Part shown: positions 30,515-42,325 of the stretch, in pieces
How positions within the stretch are numbered: position 1 is the stretch's first letter
Layout: each line of letters starts with the position of its first letter
Virus genome (UHGV): UHGV-0182515
Length of the DNA stretch: 42,850 bases
Source: a virus
Reading direction: 5' to 3' (one strand)
Translations under genes and position numbers: made by a program
The notes under the pieces: model-generated
The model's input: the letters and a program-made list of their open reading frames with translations, nothing else
What the model was told of the DNA's origin: nothing
The model's database searches: none

Positions 30515-31990
30515 ATGGCTACGTGGCAACAGGGTATTAATTCTGGTGGTTTTCTGGCTGGCATTGGTGCGCAAAATGAGAATGCGCCAAAAGCAAGCGA
30601 CATTAACGCAACGCTTGGTCTGATCCGCGAAAACAATGAGTTGGCTCGCTCAGGTGCAAATAACGTTGGTCTGACCGCGTTACGTGGTCTGGCTGGAGTT
30701 GCTGATATTTACAATCAGGAACAGCAACAGAAAGCGATTAGTGCGTTCAATAAGGTTCACGCTGATGCATGGGCTTCTGGTGATCCATCGGGACTATTTA
30801 AGTTTGCCCAGGAAAATCCAGCGTTTGTTGCACAGGCACAACAGGCGTTTTCCGGTCTTAATGATCAGCAACGTAACGATATGGGCGATTTAGCCATGAG
30901 GGCTAACGTCGCTCTTTCTCAGGGACCGGAAGCCTACAGTAAATTCATTACTGACAACAAGGACAGGTTAAATCGCGTTGGTGCGAATGCTGACTGGATG
31001 ATTCAGACAGGTATCCAGAATCCAGAGCAGTTATCACACATGCTGACTACTATGTCTCTCGGTGCGCTTGGGCCAGAAAAGGCGTTTGCTGTTCAGGACA
31101 AGATAGCTGGTCGTGAGATTGACCGAGGCAGACTGGCAGAGACAATCCGCAGCAATCAGGCCAGCGAAGCACTTCAGGCGAGAGGGCAGGATATTAGCCG
31201 AGCAAATGCGTTAACGTCAGCATATGCACCAACAGCCGCAATGCAGAATTACAATCAGTACGCGCAAATGTTAAAGGCGGATCCAGATGGTGCAGCGGCA
31301 TTTGCGGCAGCGGCGGGAATTAATCCCAATGCTAAGAAATTACTTAAGGTTGAAACCAATCCTGATGGCTCGGTAACTAAGTATTACACCGATGGCAGCG
31401 AGGAAGCCGGAAAACTAAACCAACCTATATCTGGTGATGGCATTAAACCAATTAGCTTGCCACAAGCGCAAAGCATCATAGATAAGGCTAATGAGGGTTC
31501 CAAGAAGGCGGCAGGATTTGCTTTGCGATTAAAAGATTCAATGGACTCAATGAATCAGCTTAGTAAAAGCATTGACCCTAAGCGAGTTGCATTAATAAAT
31601 CGCTCTCTTGGTGATGGGACTATTGCAAATTTAAGCCTATCACCAGCGGAGCAGCAATATATGGTAAATGCGAGAGACGCCTTGTATGCAATTTTGCGCC
31701 CAGAAACAGGTGCAGCAATTACTCTGCCAGAGATGCAGGAGTATTCCAAAATGTACCTGCCTCAGCCCGGTGATTCCAAGGCTGCTACTGAAACAAAAAT
31801 GCGAAAAATGCAGGGCCAATATAACTCATTACGTGGTCAGTCTGGTCGCGTTTATGATGCTTTGGTGGTTTCAAGTGCTGCAAATAGTCAACAACAGAGC
31901 AATAGCCAACAACCGACAAATACCCAACAGCAGCAGAGTCAATCCGGATCATATACCTCAAAATCAGGCATTCAATTTACGGTGGAATGA
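30515..31990 (+). CDS. Ejection protein, gp20-like
   Basis: 491 aa, position and composition as in P22-like phages. Confidence 0.65.
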
Positions 31991-33828
31991 TGAAAGTAAC
32001 TGCAAACGGTAAGACATTTACCTTCCCTGATGGTACGAGCACGGAAGATATTGGCACCGCCATTGATGAGTATTTTGCTGGTCAGGCTGTTCAGCAACAA
32101 ACAGTTAATCAGGCCAATAATGAACCAGCACGTGAAGAACCATCATTGATGCAACAAGCTGGCGATTGGCTCACAGGTGGTCAAAGTGCAGGGCAAATTG
32201 CAGAGCAGGCTGGTCGTGGTCTGGTAAACATACCATTTGACGTATTGCAGGGCGGCGCAAGTCTGATTAATGCAATCAGTCATGGGCTTGGTGGACCCAA
32301 GGTTTTGGATGATGTTTATCGTCCAGTAGACAGACCGACAGACCCATACGCACAAGCCGGTGAAACAATTGGTGGGTATTTAGTTCCAGGAGTTGGAACG
32401 GCAGGAAGCATGGCTATTGGATCACTGGCAGAGGCCGCAAATCAGAAAGGCGATTTCGCACAAAATGCAGCTAAAAATGCCGGAGTTAACCTTGCCGCTC
32501 AGGGGGTTCTTTCCGCAGCAGCAAAGGGAATAGGGCGTGGAATAACGGCTATAAAAGGTGATATTGCGCCAGAAGTGGCGAAGAAAATTGCCACATCAGA
32601 ATCGATTGGCGTGACACCAATGACATCTGATGTTATCCCGCCGAAAAATGCTTTCACTCGCGGCCTTACTCAGGATGCCGAGGGGGCTTTGCTCGGGACA
32701 GGCTCAAAGCGAGCGGAGCAATATGCAACGCGTAGTAAGTTGGTAAGTAATTATTTTGACCGTTTTGGTGAGTACAACCCGGATGATGTGGTGAAATCTC
32801 TGACCACCACGTTAAGGGGACGGAAGGATGCCGCTGGCGCTGTTATCAATGACGTCACCAATAAAATGGGGAATGCCGCAGTTGATACCACAAACACTAT
32901 GAATGCTCTGAATACAGCGATCGCAAGACAGGAACGGCTTGGGACGTCTGCCAATCAAAGCCTGCTTACATCCTTGCGTAACCTACGCGAAGAATTAGCA
33001 AACCCTGCAACTGATTTGGATGTTACGTTTGATCTCTTGCGTCAGCACAGAACAGCATTTAGATCTAATGTTCAGGGAGATGCTATGGTCTTCCCCAACC
33101 AGGCAAAAGCAGCTACCAATATGGTAGAGAATGCAATGTCAAAAGACCTTCGTAACGCAGTTGCTAAAAACCTCGGTGCATCAGACGCAGCAAAATACCT
33201 TAAAGCAAATTCCGATTATGCAAACGTTTATAATAAGGTGCTTAATAAAAACATTGCCAACAAGCTCAACAAGGCAAGCAGTGAAGCCAGTCCTGAACTT
33301 ATAAATACCGTTGTATTAAGCAGAAAACCATCTGACGTGAAACGAATCTGGAGCGCATTGGATGATAAAGGGAAAGATGCTATGCGTGCAGCTTACGTCA
33401 GCAAAATAGCGGAAAAGGCCGGTGACTCTCCAGCCAAGTTCATCACTGAAGTTAATAAGCTTAAATCTCAGTCAGGCGGTGAAATTTACAACACTATTTT
33501 TTCTGGAAAGCACATGAAAGAGCTCGATGCTCTTCATGAAGTTCTACAGCAAACAGCAAGGTCAGACACCGCAAATGTAGTAACTCAGACGGGGCAATCA
33601 CAAGCCAACAGGATAAGGACGATTGGCGCAACTGCGACTCTTGGAGTATCAATGGGGATTGAGGCTGGTTTTGGTGCAATGATGCGTTTGTATGAGTCCA
33701 AAGCAGCAAGGAATGCGCTCTTACGTCTGGCAAACACTAAAGCTGGAACGCCAGCTTATGAAAGAGCGCTAAATCAGGCTGCTACTGCCGTGCGCCCGCT
33801 CTTAGCTAACGAAGCGACACGGCAGTAG
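31987..33828 (+). CDS. Ejection protein, gp16-like
   Basis: 613 aa Ala/Gly-rich protein ending the ejection gene trio. Confidence 0.65.
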
Positions 33829-33850: not shown

Positions 33851-34333
33851 TTATTTTATAGTTTTTATGAATTCTTTATTAAATCCCTTAGCTTCTCCGG
33901 GGTATCTTCCAAAGACAATTTTTATAAAAACAGAAAAAATAAAGATAGCAACGCTTAACAACAGTTGCAGTATCATTGGAACCCAAAGAACTACAGGCTC
34001 TATATTCATGAAACCAAATATTCTTCCGGCGATCATGGCGAAGTACCACACTGTTATCAGCAAACTTAGTGGCATATGAATTACTGATATTACCAATCCA
34101 AGAGCATCAGTAATTCTATTTTCAAATTTTTCAGGGGAAAACTTTTCTTTAAGGTAATTAAGTGCGCAGGTCTCATTCTCTGGATTTTCAGCATTTTTCC
34201 CTATGGCAATAGAAATCTCAGATATCCTTGATTCAATTCTTTTGCGTTTAATAAAACTAGAAAAAAAGAACCACGCAATCTGCAACCCTATCCCCATAAA
34301 TAGAGTTGCGGCAACTAGCACAGCGTAACTCAT
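33851..34333 (-). CDS. Inner-membrane protein in the sieA position (putative superinfection exclusion); may start at 34417
   Basis: Three hydrophobic TM segments; AT-rich codon usage; sits between the ejection genes and immI, where P22 carries sieA. Confidence 0.45.
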
Positions 34334-34395
34334 AGAATCAGACACACCAACCTCTTTAGTTTTTCTAGTTACTTTGTCACGATAGGATATGCGAA

Positions 34396-34605
34396 TTGAT
34401 AAAACTAAATTACGCACATGATAACTCAGTAATAATTGTTAATGAAAACATGATCACCTATATTGCACAAGGCGAAACAGGAAGCATAATCTGGTTTCAT
34501 GAGTGTGATCACGTTTGGGTAAATCAAAGTCAAGAGGAAATACTTGAAATTATCAAAAATAACTATCTAAACGTTGCACACGACTCATCTATCCATTTTT
34601 CATAA
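34396..34605 (+). CDS. Small hypothetical ORF (doubtful)
   Basis: 69-aa ORF on the opposite strand between two minus-strand genes; no RBS seen. Confidence 0.15.
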
Positions 34606-35144
34606 AATTGTATACCGAGATGGGCAAGAACAGATGGATGTATATCAACAAGCTTTTCGCCAAGATGTTCTGTTGGAGGTGGATAATCTTTGCCTTGGTT
34701 TCTTACGGTTATAGGCATAGTTGTTGCTGGATGAAACTCAACTATCATAGGGTCGCCTTCGTATTTTGCTATTTTCCCTGTTGAATCAATGATTAACTCT
34801 TTAATATAATGGCTTCTTGCTCCAGGAAATGCCCCAAGAGTAGTATAAGGAGGTTCAAGTTTTGAGATTTCCATAGTGGAATGATGATCAGCATTTCTTG
34901 CTTGGTGAAGGTAAGCAAGTGTTTTGTCTGTTTTTCTAAGCATGAACTTTTGGTTGAAGTGGCTGCTAAATTTTCCACTAACCGGCTTTGTTGCACAGAG
35001 CAACTTACTGAAAGACTTTTCTATATGCCCAAGACATTCTCGCCAGTGCATTTCAAAATCATCATGGTTTGTAGATGATTTCATCTGCTCTAGGCACTTT
35101 TTAGCTGCGATGATTTCTTTTTTTGCTGGGTTGTAATCGATCAT
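34563..35144 (-). CDS. Unknown cytoplasmic protein (193 aa) translationally coupled to mnt
   Basis: Start ATG overlaps the mnt stop (ATGA at 35141-35144); AT-rich; no recognised domain. Confidence 0.55.
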   Translation of the reverse strand: MIDYNPAKKEIIAAKKCLEQMKSSTNHDDFEMHWRECLGHIEKSFSKLLCATKPVSGKFSSHFNQKFMLRKTDKTLAYLHQARNADHHSTMEISKLEPPYTTLGAFPGARSHYIKELIIDSTGKIAKYEGDPMIVEFHPATTMPITVRNQGKDYPPPTEHLGEKLVDIHPSVLAHLGIQFYEKWIDESCATFR

Positions 35145-35395
35145 TTTGCATCCTTGCCATACATGTTTTTAAGTGTCTCAAATACCACAGACTTGAACTG
35201 TTCAGCCTGCATCTCGGCTAATCGTTCAGCTTCATTGCGATAACCTTTTACAGGAGATGGTCTCGATAGAGCATCTTGGACGATTTGCAACAATTCTGAG
35301 TTCATTGATCTACCATTTGACTCTGCTCTGTATTTTAATTTTTCTCTTACTTCCAAAGGCATGCGGAAGTTAAAGTGCGGATCATCTCTAGCCAT
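35141..35395 (-). CDS. mnt: Mnt repressor (ribbon-helix-helix)
   Basis: MARDDPHFNFRMPLEVREKLKYRAESNGRSMNSELLQIVQDAL.. matches P22 Mnt. Confidence 0.9.
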   Translation of the reverse strand: MARDDPHFNFRMPLEVREKLKYRAESNGRSMNSELLQIVQDALSRPSPVKGYRNEAERLAEMQAEQFKSVVFETLKNMYGKDAK

Positions 35396-35417: not shown

Positions 35418-35470
35418 TTGACATGATAGAAGCACTCTACTATATTCTCAATAGGTCCACCGTGGACCTA
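35418..35470. promoter_or_regulatory. Pant promoter (-35 TTGACA 35418-35423, -10 TATATT 35441-35446), Arc operator (35423-35443) and Mnt operator palindrome AGGTCCACCGTGGACCT (35454-35470)
   Basis: Canonical hexamers with 17-bp spacing; the 21-bp arc operator lies between them; a 17-bp perfect palindrome follows. Confidence 0.8.
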
Positions 35471-35647: not shown

Positions 35648-35715
35648 AGTTGAAGCCCCAACTGCGGGAACAGTCAGGGCTTCTGTTGTCAGTAAATTCG
35701 TGGAGAAAAACCAAC

Positions 35716-36728: not shown

Positions 36729-37229
36729 TTACCTACTCAACAGATGGTCAGCAACCATGTTTGCTGCCTTATAAGCTATAGCCGCTTCATCAATGGTGTT
36801 GAATCTCCCAAGGGTTATGTTTTTACCTGAGACATTTATCTGAGCTTGCCATTGATTTCTGGCTTGACAGAAAGTTACCCCCTTGATTCCAGCATTGCTA
36901 TTTCGAGGTCCGACATTTAATGCATTTACGACTCTGCTGACATCCCTAAGGTTTGAGATTGCGTTATTTCTTCTGTTTCTATCAATGTGGTCAATCTCTT
37001 GTTTGGGCCATTCGCCATATACATACAGCCAGGCAAGTCTATGTGCAAAATATCTTACGCCATCAATATTAATTGCGTTATATCCATAAGAAATTGTGCC
37101 AGCAACTTTCCCAACAGCACCTCTGGCGCTTAATTTCTTTTTCCAAGTGAAAATTCCTGTTTCTTTATTGTAATCGAGAACCTCCATAAGGCGCTCCCGA
37201 GTTACTACCTCGTGACGTCTCTTACTCAT
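36729..37229 (-). CDS. HNH endonuclease with AP2-type DNA-binding domain
   Basis: HNH region [32 protein letters not shown] and an AP2-like segment [41 protein letters not shown] upstream of the ATG at 37229. Confidence 0.7.
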
Positions 37230-37242
37230 TATTTTCTCCGGA

Positions 37243-39726
37243 ATGTTTATTATGCCAGAACAATTATACAACGTAGTTGTTTCACAACCAAGTCAGTTAT
37301 TTACTTTAGCTCGCTCGTTTAAAGCAAATGCCAATGGCAAAATTTATATCGGTAAAATTGACACTGACCCGGTAAATCCAGAAAACCAGATTCAGGTTTA
37401 TGTAGAGAACGAAGACGGCTCTCACGTTCCTGTTTCGCAACCAATCATCATTAACGCTGCCGGATATCCGGTATATAACGGACAGATTGCCAAATTCGTT
37501 ACCGTGCAAGGCCATTCTATGGCTGTTTATGATGCGTATGGTGCGCAGCAGTTTTATTTTCCCAATGTGCTGAAGTATGACCCCGATCAGCTACGGCAGC
37601 AATTAGAAGATCCAGATGGCGCTAAAAAATATCCTGAGTTGCAGATGGCACGATGGAGAGATTGTGGAGATGTTAGAGGGTGGGGAGCAAAAATAGATGG
37701 GGAAACAGATGATTCAGATGCTTTTATTAAAGCTTTAAACTCTGGAAGGTCGGTTATAACAATTCCGGAAGGAATATGCATCATCAAGAAGAATATTAAC
37801 ATTCCTGAGGGGTGTTCACTGGTTGGATCTGGCATTGATTATTGGGATACATATAGACCAGCGCCTGAAAGATTATTAAAAAGTTGGAGTAAAGGAACCC
37901 ATCTTGTATTTACTGGTGATGGAGAAAAAAACAAATATTTTTTTAACATCTCTAATGAAAGACCGGTTAAAATTGTTGAGGGGATATCTTGTAAGTTCAC
38001 TGAGTTTACGAATGAAGATTCTGTAGGTGTTACTCCTGCTACACCAAAAGCCATGAGCGTAGCTGTTAGTATCAACAGGGCATCACAGTTACGCAATCTG
38101 AGAATAATGGTAAGTAAAAATGGTATTGAAGGATACAATAACCCTGATTCTTATTCATTGGGTGATAACTGGGATATAGGGTTGCATGTATACGATAGCT
38201 GTGATTCAGTTATTGATAACGTACAGATTGTCGGCTATTGGAGGGTAAAAGGACTACTACTGACAGAAAATGACGGGAGCCTTTCAATGAAGGGAAATCC
38301 TGAAAAAACGCACTTTAATAACGTTTATGTCCAGTCAGGAATCGCGATAAGGAATAGCCCTCAGATTGATCTTGTAAGTAATACTGAAAGCTCAGTGACA
38401 TTTAAACATAAAAAGTCGATGAGAATAACTTCAGTTAAACAGTTTAAAATTGCTGGCAGTGAATCAGTATATACGTATTCAGATGCATCATTTGATGGAA
38501 CTAACATCACACTATCTGGTATTTCTCCTGAAATACAAGGTACAATAAGTGTAATCAGGTTTCCGTCAATTGGTAATAATTTTAGCGGGACTGTTTTTGA
38601 GAATACAGTAGCCACTACTCTTGATCATACATCAGGTAAGCCATCAGAATACTTTGGCCTTCCTGCATCCTTTGCATTAGAGGTTGATGGTTTCCCTGTT
38701 CGTAATTTAAGGTTTGATAAATTCAAAGCTCAAACAACATTTGATAAAGGAAATTGCATTTTTGGTGATTGCCGTGATGTTAAAATAACATCATCTGAGT
38801 TTGAAAATGGAATTATGATTGCGTATAACCTGACCGAGACTCAGGGTTATACAGGAAATCTTAGATTTTTTGCTTCTGATCTTCAGAGCAGCGTTAACAC
38901 AAGTGAGTTTAAACCAAGAGACGCATTTGTAGACAATAGACAAATAAAAACGGAGTTTACTGATGGTTCGTTCATTATAAAGAACTGGAGGCCTACAGAT
39001 ACAAAAATACAATGGTCGTCTGGAGTAGATGCTATTGTTCTTAGAGAGTCACCTGACGAACAATCAAACGGAAATATTTACGGGTATCACATTGATGGTA
39101 AAAGATGGATTAATGTTAGTGGATATAACAAAGATATAAATATTTCATCAAGAAACTTAAGCGTAAAAAACCATGGTGATGACTCTACAGTTATTAATAT
39201 ATTCGGCGACTCTGGAAATATTGCCATTAAAGGTAATTTTTTACCAATTATTGATAACAGCAAATCTCTTGGTGCACCATCATTTAGATGGGCTCAGATT
39301 TATTCTGCATCCGGGACTATAAGCACATCAGATGAAACACTTAAAACAATATATGACATTACTCAGGCAGAGCGTGATGCTGCGCTGGAAATAAAGGGAA
39401 TTATATGCAAGTTCAGGTTTAATGAGTCGATTAATTTTAAAGGATTGGAGTTATCAAGGTATCATTTTGGAGTTGGCGCTCAAACCGTAGGAGATATTCT
39501 TAGAAAGCGTGGTTTAAATCCTGAGCAATATGCTTTTTGGTGTTACGATGAATGGCCAGACGTATGGGATGAAGAGGTGATAACTGAAGAGAGCACAGAT
39601 CCTGATACAGGTGAGAAAATTTATTCTCAATATAAAACAGGAAATATGATTCTTGTAAAAAAAGCAGGTGGACGCTACGGAATTCGTTATGACGAATTGG
39701 CTATGTTTATATTAATGGCAATGTAG
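37243..39726 (+). CDS. Tailspike protein (P22-type head-binding N-domain, distinct receptor-binding domain, C-terminal intramolecular chaperone)
   Basis: N-terminal about 120 aa resemble P22 gp9 ([46 protein letters not shown]); the C-terminal about 130 aa carry an SDETLK motif typical of the self-cleaving chaperone domain (peptidase S74 type). Confidence 0.8.
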
Positions 39727-39923: not shown

Positions 39924-41081
39924 TCACTCCACCTTCTCATCAATCCAGTCCGCCCACCACTGCATCATCTCCCTGCGCTTATCGAGATATTGCGCATGGT
40001 TGTAAATACCGCGCACAGATCCGCCGTTGGCATGTGCCAGTTGCACTTCAATAGCATCAGCAGGCCATTCGTGCTCGTTCATAATCGTGCTGAATTCATG
40101 CCTGAATCCGTGACCGCTTTCCAGCCCTTCATAGCCAATTTGTTTGATCACAAGCAATACCGCGTTCTCGCAGATTGGCTTCTTCTTATCGTTGCGCCCG
40201 GCAAAAACAAACTCTGACACTGGTTTAGTGATTGAGCTTAGCGTAGTGAGAAGTTCAATCACCTGGTCTGACATAGGAACCACATGAATTTTTCGCCCCT
40301 TCATCACACTGGCGTCGATGGTGATAATCCTGTTTTCAAAATCGACGTTCTTCCATTGCATGGAACGAAGCTCTTTCGTTCTTAGGGCTGTGTAGCGTAA
40401 AACTTTGGTCGCAATGAGCGATACGATGCTTCCTGAAAATGTTGCCAGTGCTTTGTTGAATGCAGGGATCTGGTCTGCTGGAAGAAACGGGAAGTTCTTC
40501 TTGCGGTATCCTTTCATGGCGTCTGCAAGGTCAGGTGCCGGGTTATATTTAGCCCTTCCGGTGACAATAGCGTAACGAAAAACCTCGCCGCATCTTCTGC
40601 GGGCTTTGTTGGCTCGCTCCATTGCACCGCGATCTTCAAATCTGCGGATTACTTCCAGCAGTTGCATCGGCTCAATATCCTGAATCTCAAGACCGCCGAT
40701 GATGGGTAAAATGTCGTCATCAAACATTTTGGCAAGTTCAGTTGCATAGCCTACTGACCAGACTTGCTTCTTGTGCTCGTACCATTCCTTGTAAATCGCA
40801 CTAAAGGAATTGTTGTTAGACGAAGCCTTTTTCGCTTTTACCGGATCGATGCCAACCGAGATGTCTTTCCTCGCAGTCCATGCTTTATCCCTTGCCTCCT
40901 GCAAAGTCATAAGCGGATATTTTCCTACGGTCAGGATTTTCTCCTTACCGTCAATCTTGTAGCGAAGCTGCCATACCTTTTTCCCTGACACAGGGACATA
41001 AAGGTACAGGCCATTACCATCGAGTAGGCGGTATGGTTTTTCTTTCGGCTTTGCTGCTTCAATCTGCTTAACGGTGAGCAT
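39924..41081 (-). CDS. intS: Tyrosine integrase, IntS/P4 family (ATG at 41081; an upstream GTG at 41117 is also in frame)
   Basis: C-terminal catalytic region ...HGFRHEFSTIMNE...LAHANGGSVRGIYNHAQY (catalytic Tyr) and N-terminus MLTVKQIEAAKPKEKPYRL..; adjacent to the tRNA. Confidence 0.9.
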   Translation of the reverse strand: MLTVKQIEAAKPKEKPYRLLDGNGLYLYVPVSGKKVWQLRYKIDGKEKILTVGKYPLMTLQEARDKAWTARKDISVGIDPVKAKKASSNNNSFSAIYKEWYEHKKQVWSVGYATELAKMFDDDILPIIGGLEIQDIEPMQLLEVIRRFEDRGAMERANKARRRCGEVFRYAIVTGRAKYNPAPDLADAMKGYRKKNFPFLPADQIPAFNKALATFSGSIVSLIATKVLRYTALRTKELRSMQWKNVDFENRIITIDASVMKGRKIHVVPMSDQVIELLTTLSSITKPVSEFVFAGRNDKKKPICENAVLLVIKQIGYEGLESGHGFRHEFSTIMNEHEWPADAIEVQLAHANGGSVRGIYNHAQYLDKRREMMQWWADWIDEKVE

Positions 41082-41243
41082 GGGTAAAAATCCGGTGGGT
41101 AAAATTATTTTATCCACTTTTTACCCGTCATGGAGTGCGGCTGTCAACGATCTGACGTGAACCATTACGAACTGTAAATCTACGGAAGGCTTGATATTCA
41201 GGGGATTTTGCGGACTGCTACGGATGGGAGCGAACTGATAAAT

Positions 41244-41258
41244 GGTGTCCCCTGCAGG
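41244..41258. repeat. attL core candidate (15 bp, identical to 992-1006), the 3' end of argW
   Basis: Exact direct repeat read from the sequence. Confidence 0.6.
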
Positions 41259-41318
41259 AATCGAACCTGCAATTAGCCCTTAGGAGGGGCTCGTTATATC
41301 CATTTAACTAAGAGGACA
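41244..41318 (-). tRNA. argW: tRNA-Arg (anticodon CCU)
   Basis: Reverse complement GTCCTCTTAGTTAAATGGATATAACGAGCCCCTCCTAAGGGCTAATTGCAGGTTCGATTCCTGCAGGGGACACCA folds as a cloverleaf with 7-bp acceptor stem, T-loop GGTTCGATTCC, anticodon loop CUCCUAA and CCA end. Confidence 0.85.
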
Positions 41319-41392
41319 ATGCGGCATGAGTATACCCGCTAATGGACTACGGGGTAAGTACACAGCCGCTCGATTGCTTAAACCCTCGCCAT

Positions 41393-42325
41393 TTATGCCG
41401 GGTTTTTATCATTTTTCTTAATGTTTTCCGCACGTTCTGCTTTTTGACGTGCTTCTACTTTGCGCTTGTTGCTCATGTCGTTACGAATCTGTGCATGACT
41501 CATTAACGCGAAGATAAAGGTGCCGCCGCAGATGTTCCCCGCTAAAGTAGGTAGTGCGAAGGGCCAGATGAAATCGCTCCAGTGCAGCGTACCGTTAAAC
41601 ACCAGATAGAGGATTTCTACAGAACCGACAACGATGTGGGTGGTGTCACCCAGGGCAATAAGCCAGGTCATCAATATAATCACCACAATCTTTGCCGCAC
41701 CCGCTGCAGGAAACATCCATACCATAGTGGCGATCAGCCAGCCGGAAATGATCGCGTTGGCAAACATCTCGCTGGGGGTGTTCTTCATCACATCCATGCC
41801 GATTTTGACAAATGCATCGCGAGTTTCTTCATTGAAGATAGGCATATATTCAAATGCCCACGCAGCAATACCTGTCCCGATAATATTACCCAGCAGCACG
41901 ATGCCCCATAACCGCATAAGTAAGCCGACGTTGCTCATTGTCGGTTTTTGCATGACGGGTAGTACCGCAGTTACAGTGTTTTCGGTAAATAATTGCTGGC
42001 GGGCCATTATGACGATAATAAAACCAAAGGTATAACCGAGATTCTCCAGCAAGAAGCTGCCCGGCACGCCTTCCAGTTCGACATGAAATATCCCTTTTGC
42101 CAGTAGCGAAGCGCCCATCGACAGGCCCGCCGCAATGGCTGACCACAGTAGCGCCATTGCGTCGCGTTCCAGCTCTTTTTCACCATCCTGGCGGATATGC
42201 TCATGAATTGCCATCGCCCGGGAGGGGAGTCGGTCTTCATCTATTTCTATTTTTTTACCGCGCTCTTTTTCTTCGCTCTCAACTTCAATTTCGTCGCTGT
42301 GTTGATCAATTTTGTCGTTGTCCAT
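41393..42325 (-). CDS. yfdC: Inner-membrane protein of the formate/nitrite transporter family (YfdC-like), host gene
   Basis: 310-aa polytopic membrane protein, recognised as YfdC by sequence and by its position next to argW. Confidence 0.75.
   Translation of the reverse strand: MDNDKIDQHSDEIEVESEEKERGKKIEIDEDRLPSRAMAIHEHIRQDGEKELERDAMALLWSAIAAGLSMGASLLAKGIFHVELEGVPGSFLLENLGYTFGFIIVIMARQQLFTENTVTAVLPVMQKPTMSNVGLLMRLWGIVLLGNIIGTGIAAWAFEYMPIFNEETRDAFVKIGMDVMKNTPSEMFANAIISGWLIATMVWMFPAAGAAKIVVIILMTWLIALGDTTHIVVGSVEILYLVFNGTLHWSDFIWPFALPTLAGNICGGTFIFALMSHAQIRNDMSNKRKVEARQKAERAENIKKNDKNPA

Follow-up and report, generated by a model that had tools for sequence, protein, structure and literature searches.

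HEPN RNases are common in abortive-infection systems. The lactococcal proteins AbiU2, AbiJ, AbiD/F and AbiV are single-gene, mobile-element-borne HEPN proteins that abort infection (PMC3710099). A more recent case is HepS of the Salmonella prophage Gifsy-1, a solo protein that is constitutively made and non-toxic, and whose cutting of tRNA anticodon loops is switched on by a tail-tip protein (PMC13043305; PDB 9OIJ). Here we analyze a gene for a 193-residue protein in the UHGV virus genome UHGV-0182515, a stretch of 42,850 nucleotides (the window, to whose positions all coordinates refer unless another locus is named). The window is a P22-like prophage of E. coli, with a 2-kb region that is 100% identical to strains Combat2C1 and FDAARGOS_1256. 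The gene lies in the immI region, between the repressor gene mnt and a gene for a membrane protein, and together with the latter it had been singled out, in a prediction made from the DNA letters (the original prediction), as a candidate lysogen-expressed defence or exclusion locus. We find that the protein has a predicted HEPN-like fold with a conserved Rx4H motif, which makes its gene a good candidate for a new single-gene anti-phage defence.

Family size, conservation and predicted fold

The 193-residue open reading frame (ORF) is a real gene and not a chance ORF, because about 1,770 clusters of family members exist and because the 24 close copies are intact without exception. An exhaustive HMMER profile search collected 1,772 clusters at 50% identity (E <= 1e-3), 1,297 of them with E <= 1e-10; a word-indexed search returned seven relatives only, and a metagenome scan yielded two further ones at 47-48% identity. 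Family members are mostly 190-200 residues long and stand-alone, and they are spread across Proteobacteria and beyond. The 24 close copies fall into 15 nucleotide alleles; of the differences between them, 11 are synonymous and 10 nonsynonymous, and this ratio indicates purifying selection. All named copies are annotated as 'hypothetical protein'. Among Pfam, NCBIfam, PADLOC and PHROGs, only a PHROG of unknown function matched the protein, and literature searches under its accession or its PHROG number found nothing on it.

The AlphaFold2 model, computed from an alignment of 121 sequences, has a predicted local distance difference test score (pLDDT) of 96.5 and a predicted template modelling score (pTM) of 0.89. 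It consists of helices 5-23, 27-51, 53-72 and 74-88, eight beta strands (94-154) and a last helix (170-192). The HEPN core is a four-helix up-down bundle of ~100-120 residues, often with inserts, and the predicted fold agrees with this description. Only three residues, W34, R83 and H88, are invariant in all 269 members compared. The last two form the Rx4H motif, which in the model terminates helix 74-88 on its C-terminal side and is followed directly by a loop. In described HEPN proteins the Rx4-6H motif occupies the end of helix 3 or the start of the loop between helices 3 and 4, the residue after the motif arginine is mostly N, D or H, and many families have Ex3[KR] in helix 2 (PMC3710099). 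In the present family, position 84 is occupied by D (145 members), N (87) or H (18) in 250/269 cases (93%). Helix 27-51 contains E or D at position 31 (230/269, 86%) and R or K at position 35 (183/269, 68%), fitting Ex3[KR]. Near-invariant besides are R70, D73, Y78, P157 and H160.

Based on the predicted fold and the position of the motif, we consider it quite probable that the protein belongs to a HEPN family not described before, in which a large beta-rich insert separates helices 3 and 4. Some sub-threshold matches were also seen in PADLOC: RTasHEPN was the only model matched by more than two members (6/121, E >= 0.002), and the family consensus weakly matched CARF_HEPN (E 0.03).

A mobile cassette coupled to mnt

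Two cargo genes, sieA and the 193-residue gene, are carried here in the lysogen-expressed arm of an immI region of the P22 type. Mnt of the window is 79% identical to its P22 counterpart; it has an Arc-type ribbon-helix-helix N-terminal domain and the Mnt C-terminal domain, and its gene is divergent from arc-ant with Pant/Pmnt operators. In P22, Pmnt drives Mnt in lysogens and Mnt represses Pant. The promoter/operator region of the window (promoter scan scores 11/12 for Pant and 10/12 for Pmnt) is 98% identical to the annotated Pant/Pmnt/Oarc/Omnt region of P22, so that the regulatory logic of immI can be transferred from P22. The assignment of the block to the lysogen-expressed arm in the original prediction is therefore well founded, and the overlap of the mnt stop codon with the start codon of the 193-residue gene as ATGA, pointed out there as well, was confirmed (Table 1).

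The ATGA junction is kept in 24/24 close copies and in a 62%-identical homolog at locus L021. The 30 nt upstream of it are identical in 20 of the 24 copies, with one to four substitutions in the remaining loci (L005, L006, L030 and L031); the putative Shine-Dalgarno sequence AAGGA reads AAGAA in L006 and L030. The terminal ATGCAAAATGA of mnt and the overlap itself are unchanged in all 24. The final ~13 codons of mnt (...ETLKNMYGKDAK) move together with the 193-residue gene as part of one cassette, which was found beside at least three Mnt alleles that are mutually 36-45% identical. Cassette-linked alleles end in ...ETLK(N/T)MYGK(D/N)AK and uncoupled Mnt proteins in ...DLYKKTT. A related arrangement occurs in E. 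coli Res13-Lact-ER02-39 (L045, 5441-6228), where a gene for a 178-residue ClpP-like protein (Pfam CLP_protease, 4e-12) abuts an Mnt allele, the stop and start codons sharing one base. This allele ends in MYGKDEK, which resembles the tail carried with the 193-residue cassette, and judging from these sequences, downstream cargo in general may be coupled through the C-terminal tail of Mnt.

The cassette spans ~840 bp (window ~34343-35181) and is 98.8-100% identical among prophages with differing flanks. The GC content of the block 33851-35144 is 36.2% versus 47.1% for the window, placing it in the lowest 2% among segments of equal size. The AT-richness of the block is thus confirmed, and the block does look horizontally acquired, as had been suggested. 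The mnt-sieA interval of P22 is annotated with orf59a, the mnt terminator and PsieA, all three of which are replaced here by the cassette. In the alignment, homology to P22 sets in again only at the ribosome-binding site of sieA, ~20 nt before the start codon; on the other side the boundary lies inside the 3' end of mnt. Searches of 50,697 phage records (tblastn, blastn) gave no match to the 193-residue gene, either as DNA or as protein. Of 5426 complete E. coli genomes, 21 carry the gene (98.8-100% identity), which in all 21 overlaps an Arc-family coding sequence via the same ATGA, and IMG/VR contains 15 further near-identical copies. Several hundred E. coli genomes have related immI regions without it.

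The gene that follows the cassette varies. It is sieA in the window, a gene for a signal-peptide protein (phrog_2651) in L004 and one for a single-pass membrane protein (phrog_10450) in L005, and the swap falls exactly at the common ribosome-binding site and GTG (window 34343-34345; L004 3940-3985; L005 4030-4076). As the downstream envelope gene is swapped while the junction with mnt is constant, the stable link is the one between mnt and the 193-residue gene, and not between the latter and sieA. Since three unrelated envelope proteins are exchanged exactly at the same start codon, this position seems to be a second plug-in slot, which may accommodate alternative exclusion proteins. In E. coli strain 81 (L051, 655-2372), ISSen4, an IS3-family element, splits sieA; the neighbouring 193-residue gene and mnt are intact.

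Table 1. Features of the immI region and its surroundings in the window
Feature	Coordinates	Strand	Remarks
gp16-like gene	31987-33828		ejection-protein genes upstream of the block
sieA, type-A superinfection-exclusion inner-membrane protein, 164 aa	33851..34345	-	P22 SieA homology
Cassette spacer, 217 bp	34346..34562	-	ends in sieA ribosome-binding site and GTG start
193-aa gene, predicted HEPN-fold protein with beta-rich insert	34563..35144	-	
Beta-rich insert, ~aa 90-165	34650..34877	-	between motif helix and last helix; conserved PPxxHLG (P157, H160)
Codons of R83-N-A-D-H-H88, Rx4H motif	34881..34898	-	
ATGA overlap, mnt stop/193-aa gene start	35141..35144	-	ATG 35144-35142, TGA 35143-35141
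mnt, Mnt-type ribbon-helix-helix repressor, 84 aa	35141..35395	-	Pfam Arc 2.8e-27, Repressor_Mnt 3.4e-11
AAGGA, putative Shine-Dalgarno sequence of 193-aa gene	35151..35155	-	read from sequence; inside mnt 3' end, 6 nt upstream
Pant/Pmnt divergent overlapping promoters and Arc/Mnt operators	35418..35451		Pant (+) 35418-35446, Pmnt (-) 35451-35423
sar antisense RNA	35648-35715		Rfam 91 bits
HNH endonuclease gene	36729-37271	-	Pfam HNH_3 2.5e-16 and weak AP2 domain
Tailspike gene, 827 aa	37243-39726	+	P22 head-binding domain

Expression of the cassette and identity of sieA

The spacer between the 193-residue gene and sieA is nearly identical among prophages with different downstream genes. Its minus strand has no terminator-like site and no consensus promoter, and the spacer showed no significant RNA structure (z-score 0.19) and no Rfam match. 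Comparison with P22 indicates that the PsieA promoter and the mnt terminator are absent from the window locus. In P22, orf59a precedes the annotated mnt terminator, and the slot therefore belongs to the mnt transcript. The simplest reading would be a transcript driven by Pmnt that covers mnt, the 193-residue gene and sieA, with translational coupling at the ATGA. Its continuation into sieA is probable because there is neither a terminator nor a recognisable promoter in between.

On the plus strand, an FlbD-like ORF of 69 residues (34396-34605) overlaps the spacer and the 3' end of the 193-residue gene. That it is a gene is improbable: Pfam gives no match to it, its marginal PHROG match reaches an E-value of only 0.0055, RefSeq (PGAP) does not annotate it, and it is not conserved at the 62%-identical homolog. 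The sole promoter-like site in the spacer region (34436-34464) lies within this ORF, from whose region an antisense transcript may arise.

The original prediction had described the neighbouring membrane protein as one in the position where P22 carries sieA. The position is correct, yet the gene is no stand-in: it is sieA itself. Its product is 91% identical to P22 SieA over 164 residues without gaps, matches the SieA-like phrog_7745 at 2e-108 and has the FxRYPxEAxxFNK motif conserved in SieA proteins (Leavitt et al., PMC10883804). The gene sits between homologs of genes 16 and 9. The ORF found mechanically (33851-34417, minus strand, GTG start) has 188 codons, and RefSeq (PGAP) lists a 188-residue 'hypothetical protein' in the 100%-identical strains. 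The true start is almost certainly the GTG at 34345, since P22 SieA homology, the PHROG match and the common ribosome-binding site all begin there. Given the 91% identity to a characterised protein (PMC10883804), SieA of the window would be expected to block DNA injection by P22-like phages. This half of the locus, being the characterised SieA, is therefore already known.

Genomic contexts of relatives and other cargo of the slot

The 62%-identical relative at L021 is ATGA-coupled to an Mnt-family protein (phrog_795, 3e-15) that is 23% identical to Mnt of the window. We considered this locus as proof of an autonomous module, made of a ribbon-helix-helix and a HEPN gene, outside immI, and downgraded it: its ribbon-helix-helix protein belongs to a class of Mnt seen in ordinary immI regions, and L021 may for this reason be a decayed immI. 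The more distant relatives are solitary in all 12 distinct loci examined, none having an overlapping small upstream gene. Those at prophage ends adjoin a tailspike gene, a tape-measure gene, a lysis cassette or an HNH gene, and those on mobilizable plasmids of Acinetobacter adjoin Fic. One other relative stands beside a KAP NTPase, and some are found in small chromosomal islets.

The interval between mnt and sieA holds other genes in other E. coli P22-like prophages, namely a Panacea-domain pair, a P63C-domain protein or the ClpP-like gene. The slot between mnt and gene 16 is thus a cargo hotspot, and the region from gene 16 to gene 9 has been reported to be very variable among P22-like phages (PMC8022706). 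Together with the solitary settings of the distant relatives, these observations speak for a defence-like lifestyle of the family. The Panacea-domain proteins are encoded on the opposite strand (L003 2521-3388; L044 4515-4964; L045 4521-5388). A 139-residue partner without a Pfam match follows the Panacea gene in L003 and L045, and none is annotated in L044. In strain elppa4 a P63C-domain protein fills the interval (L043 4303-5271).

Proposed mode of action and alternative explanations

The gene structure, the mobility of the cassette, the size and conservation of the family, the predicted fold, the position of the motif and the identities of SieA and Mnt are directly established here. They can be put together in the following scheme, in which RNase activity, defence and co-transcription would all have to hold, and to which we give an even chance: the 193-residue protein acts as a lysogen-expressed solo HEPN RNase that aborts infection and is paired with SieA. 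In an established lysogen, mnt would be transcribed from Pmnt. Ribosomes ending mnt would re-initiate at the ATGA, aided by the AAGGA within mnt, to give a low, constant level of the 193-residue protein, and the transcript would probably run on into sieA. The protein, presumably cytoplasmic and HEPN-fold, would be inactive at rest. Upon infection by another phage, its beta-rich insert or its oligomeric state might sense a phage product; both the resting inactivity and the trigger are inferred. The Rx4H site (R83 and H88, assisted by N84 and E31) would then cleave tRNA or mRNA in a metal-independent manner, leading to a stop of translation and an aborted infection. Thus SieA would halt P22-like phages at entry and the HEPN protein would act on phages that are past it.

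A fuller version of this reading may be offered tentatively, as it is somewhat doubtful in its entirety. On this view, the 193-residue protein would be the first case in which a large family of solo HEPN RNases, so far without a name, becomes recognisable; its members would have a beta-rich sensor directly after the motif and act as single-protein abortive-infection systems. The gene would be coupled to Mnt and stand next to a second plug-in slot whose exclusion proteins are swapped at the start codon. Translational coupling to Mnt would restrict production of the defence to times at which the antirepressor circuit is kept off.

Several observations weigh against the proposed role. Curated HEPN models (Pfam, NCBIfam, PADLOC) and PDB sequences gave no significant match to the protein, and PADLOC-DB v2.0.0 had none even at E <= 1. 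Of the checks suggested with the original prediction, structure prediction gave the HEPN-like bundle, and a Foldseek search of the PDB found nothing with E < 1. Two relatives lie beside housekeeping genes (pgk and an IF-2B-like gene) and have no sign of a mobile element. Finally, a weak promoter inside the spacer is conceivable. The claim of a candidate defence or exclusion locus holds up in its setting in the lysogen-expressed arm, in the apparently acquired cassette and in the HEPN hallmarks of the protein. It has to be revised in that the membrane half is the known SieA and that the 193-residue gene is linked to Mnt and not to SieA.

It might be argued that the resemblance to HEPN is coincidental and that this is a helical-bundle protein with a beta domain and some other activity, such as binding, inhibition of a factor of the host or of a phage, or catalysis by R70, D73, Y78 and H160. 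Sequence profiles link the family to no HEPN family: 121 members and the family consensus hit neither HEPN nor any recurrent family in Pfam, and profile searches of the PDB (with 8- and 121-sequence profiles) gave chance matches only and no HEPN entry. The near-invariant W34, R70, D73, Y78, P157 and H160 could also form a non-HEPN site. In view of the predicted bundle and the placement of the invariant R83 and H88, we nevertheless hold such a coincidence to be unlikely. If the fold is accepted, an RNase or RNA-binding protein of the HEPN type could still serve the phage life cycle or host physiology instead of defence, for instance by turning over the ant, sar or mnt transcripts in immI or by modulating host translation in lysogens. 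The regulatory region already has an antisense RNA, sar, some chromosomal members of the family neighbour housekeeping genes, and many HEPN proteins function in RNA processing (PMC3710099). Against this, the gene is found in 21 of the 5426 E. coli genomes, and the several hundred related immI regions that lack it indicate that immI function is independent of it. P22 also does without the gene, and its patchy distribution, biased towards mobile elements, fits accessory cargo. We found no match to a P22 immI protein of established non-defence function, orf59a, the P22 gene of the slot, being unrelated. We assign little probability to a role of this kind.

The tight junction with mnt invites a further explanation, namely that Mnt and the 193-residue protein form an addiction pair similar to a toxin-antitoxin system. 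The ribbon-helix-helix protein would autoregulate the operon and neutralise the HEPN toxin, which would be freed by prophage loss or induction, resulting in prophage stabilisation or in a suicide switch tied to immI. Type II toxin-antitoxin operons in which a ribbon-helix-helix antitoxin stands upstream typically have this gene order and a 4-bp overlap. Moreover, the overlap persists with at least three Mnt alleles despite their mutual identity of 36-45%, in the 62%-identical homolog with its only 23%-identical partner, and with an Arc-family coding sequence in 21/21 E. coli genomes, and the Mnt tail MYGKDAK moves with the cassette. However, coupling to Mnt is confined to the closest subfamily (>=62% identity), the 12/12 distant loci being solitary, so that an antitoxin does not consistently co-occur with the family. 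Mnt is here a genuine immI repressor with P22 operators. As the ClpP-like gene follows an Mnt allele with a very similar tail (MYGKDEK), this segment seems to serve for expression coupling in general and not for binding a toxin. The homolog at L021 may not provide an independent module either, as the Mnt class of its partner also occurs in immI regions and the locus may be decayed. Taken together, these observations make an addiction pair improbable, and we retain the solo HEPN RNase as the favoured reading.

Other features of the window

Downstream of mnt follow arc, sar and ant (P22_AR domains by Pfam), then the HNH endonuclease gene and the tailspike gene. The insertion that separates ant from the tailspike gene is the HNH gene, which is encoded on the opposite strand; a similar gene adjoins a 48%-identical relative of the 193-residue gene in L041 (3671-4258). 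In the tailspike, the P22 head-binding domain is joined by a pectate-lyase-like segment and a weak endosialidase-type C-terminal match. With a GC content of 37.5%, its gene is as AT-rich as the block of sieA and the 193-residue gene.

Directly past the tailspike gene (39924-42325) are a tyrosine integrase gene (minus strand), tRNA-Arg(CCT) (41243-41317, minus strand) and a host gene of the formate/nitrite-transporter family. In an integrated P22-type prophage the tailspike and integrase genes are normally not neighbours, and because this adjacency is unusual, the integrase may stem from another element, separate or remnant, at the tRNA-Arg site.

Significance and comparison with known systems

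The locus shows how P22-like prophages build lysogen-protective operons, combining a cargo slot coupled to Mnt with a slot for envelope exclusion at a fixed ribosome-binding site and start codon. If the proposed role is correct, a widespread family of single-gene HEPN defence has gone unrecognised by current annotation resources, and a name could be given to thousands of 'hypothetical proteins' encoded by prophages, plasmids and chromosomes. The beta-rich insert would then be a new sensor architecture for studying how solo HEPN proteins are silenced and how they recognise phages, a question newly opened by HepS. In any case, the 193-residue gene provides an easily testable entry both into a large unannotated family and into the modular cargo slots of P22 immI.

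As for the known occupants of the region, P22 orf59a uses the same slot, directly downstream of mnt and upstream of its terminator. It encodes only 59 residues, does not overlap mnt and has no sequence similarity to the 193-residue gene. SieA of P22, a type A protein, shares with that of the window its length, motif, position, ribosome-binding site and GTG start; it differs in having its own PsieA, whereas sieA of the window is preceded by the cassette spacer. The host differs as well, as the window SieA comes from E. coli and Salmonella is the host of all 22 sequenced phages that encode close relatives of SieA.

Among HEPN proteins, HepT of the HepT/MntA (HEPN/MNT) type VII toxin-antitoxin system is encoded with a minimal-nucleotidyltransferase antitoxin, and no such gene adjoins the 193-residue gene. 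'MNT' in that name stands for minimal nucleotidyltransferase and is unrelated to the Mnt repressor of P22. HepT and stand-alone HEPN domains of known structure (PDB 4nqf, 7ae2, 8xdj, 5yep, 1wwp and 1wol) are 7-13% identical to the 193-residue protein, give no profile match and lack its beta insert. Csx1 has a beta-hairpin directly after the HEPN motif (PMC3710099). Proteins of the Csx1 type come with a CARF domain and a CRISPR context; the present family has neither, and its eight-stranded insert is much larger. None of the Pfam or PADLOC models of the lactococcal Abi proteins matches the family. AbiV, in addition, lacks the canonical histidine of the motif, whereas both R and H are invariant here.

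The LT2 Gifsy-1 record contains no ORF with the R100-H105 motif reported for HepS. HepS would by analogy be the closest functional precedent for the 193-residue protein. Both are encoded by single prophage genes without a partner, in an accessory slot, with constitutive expression expected in the lysogen and with an Rx4-6H motif. By this comparison, a solo HEPN abortive-infection protein would be of a known kind and the SieA half of the locus is ordinary and already explained, while the family and its architecture are new.

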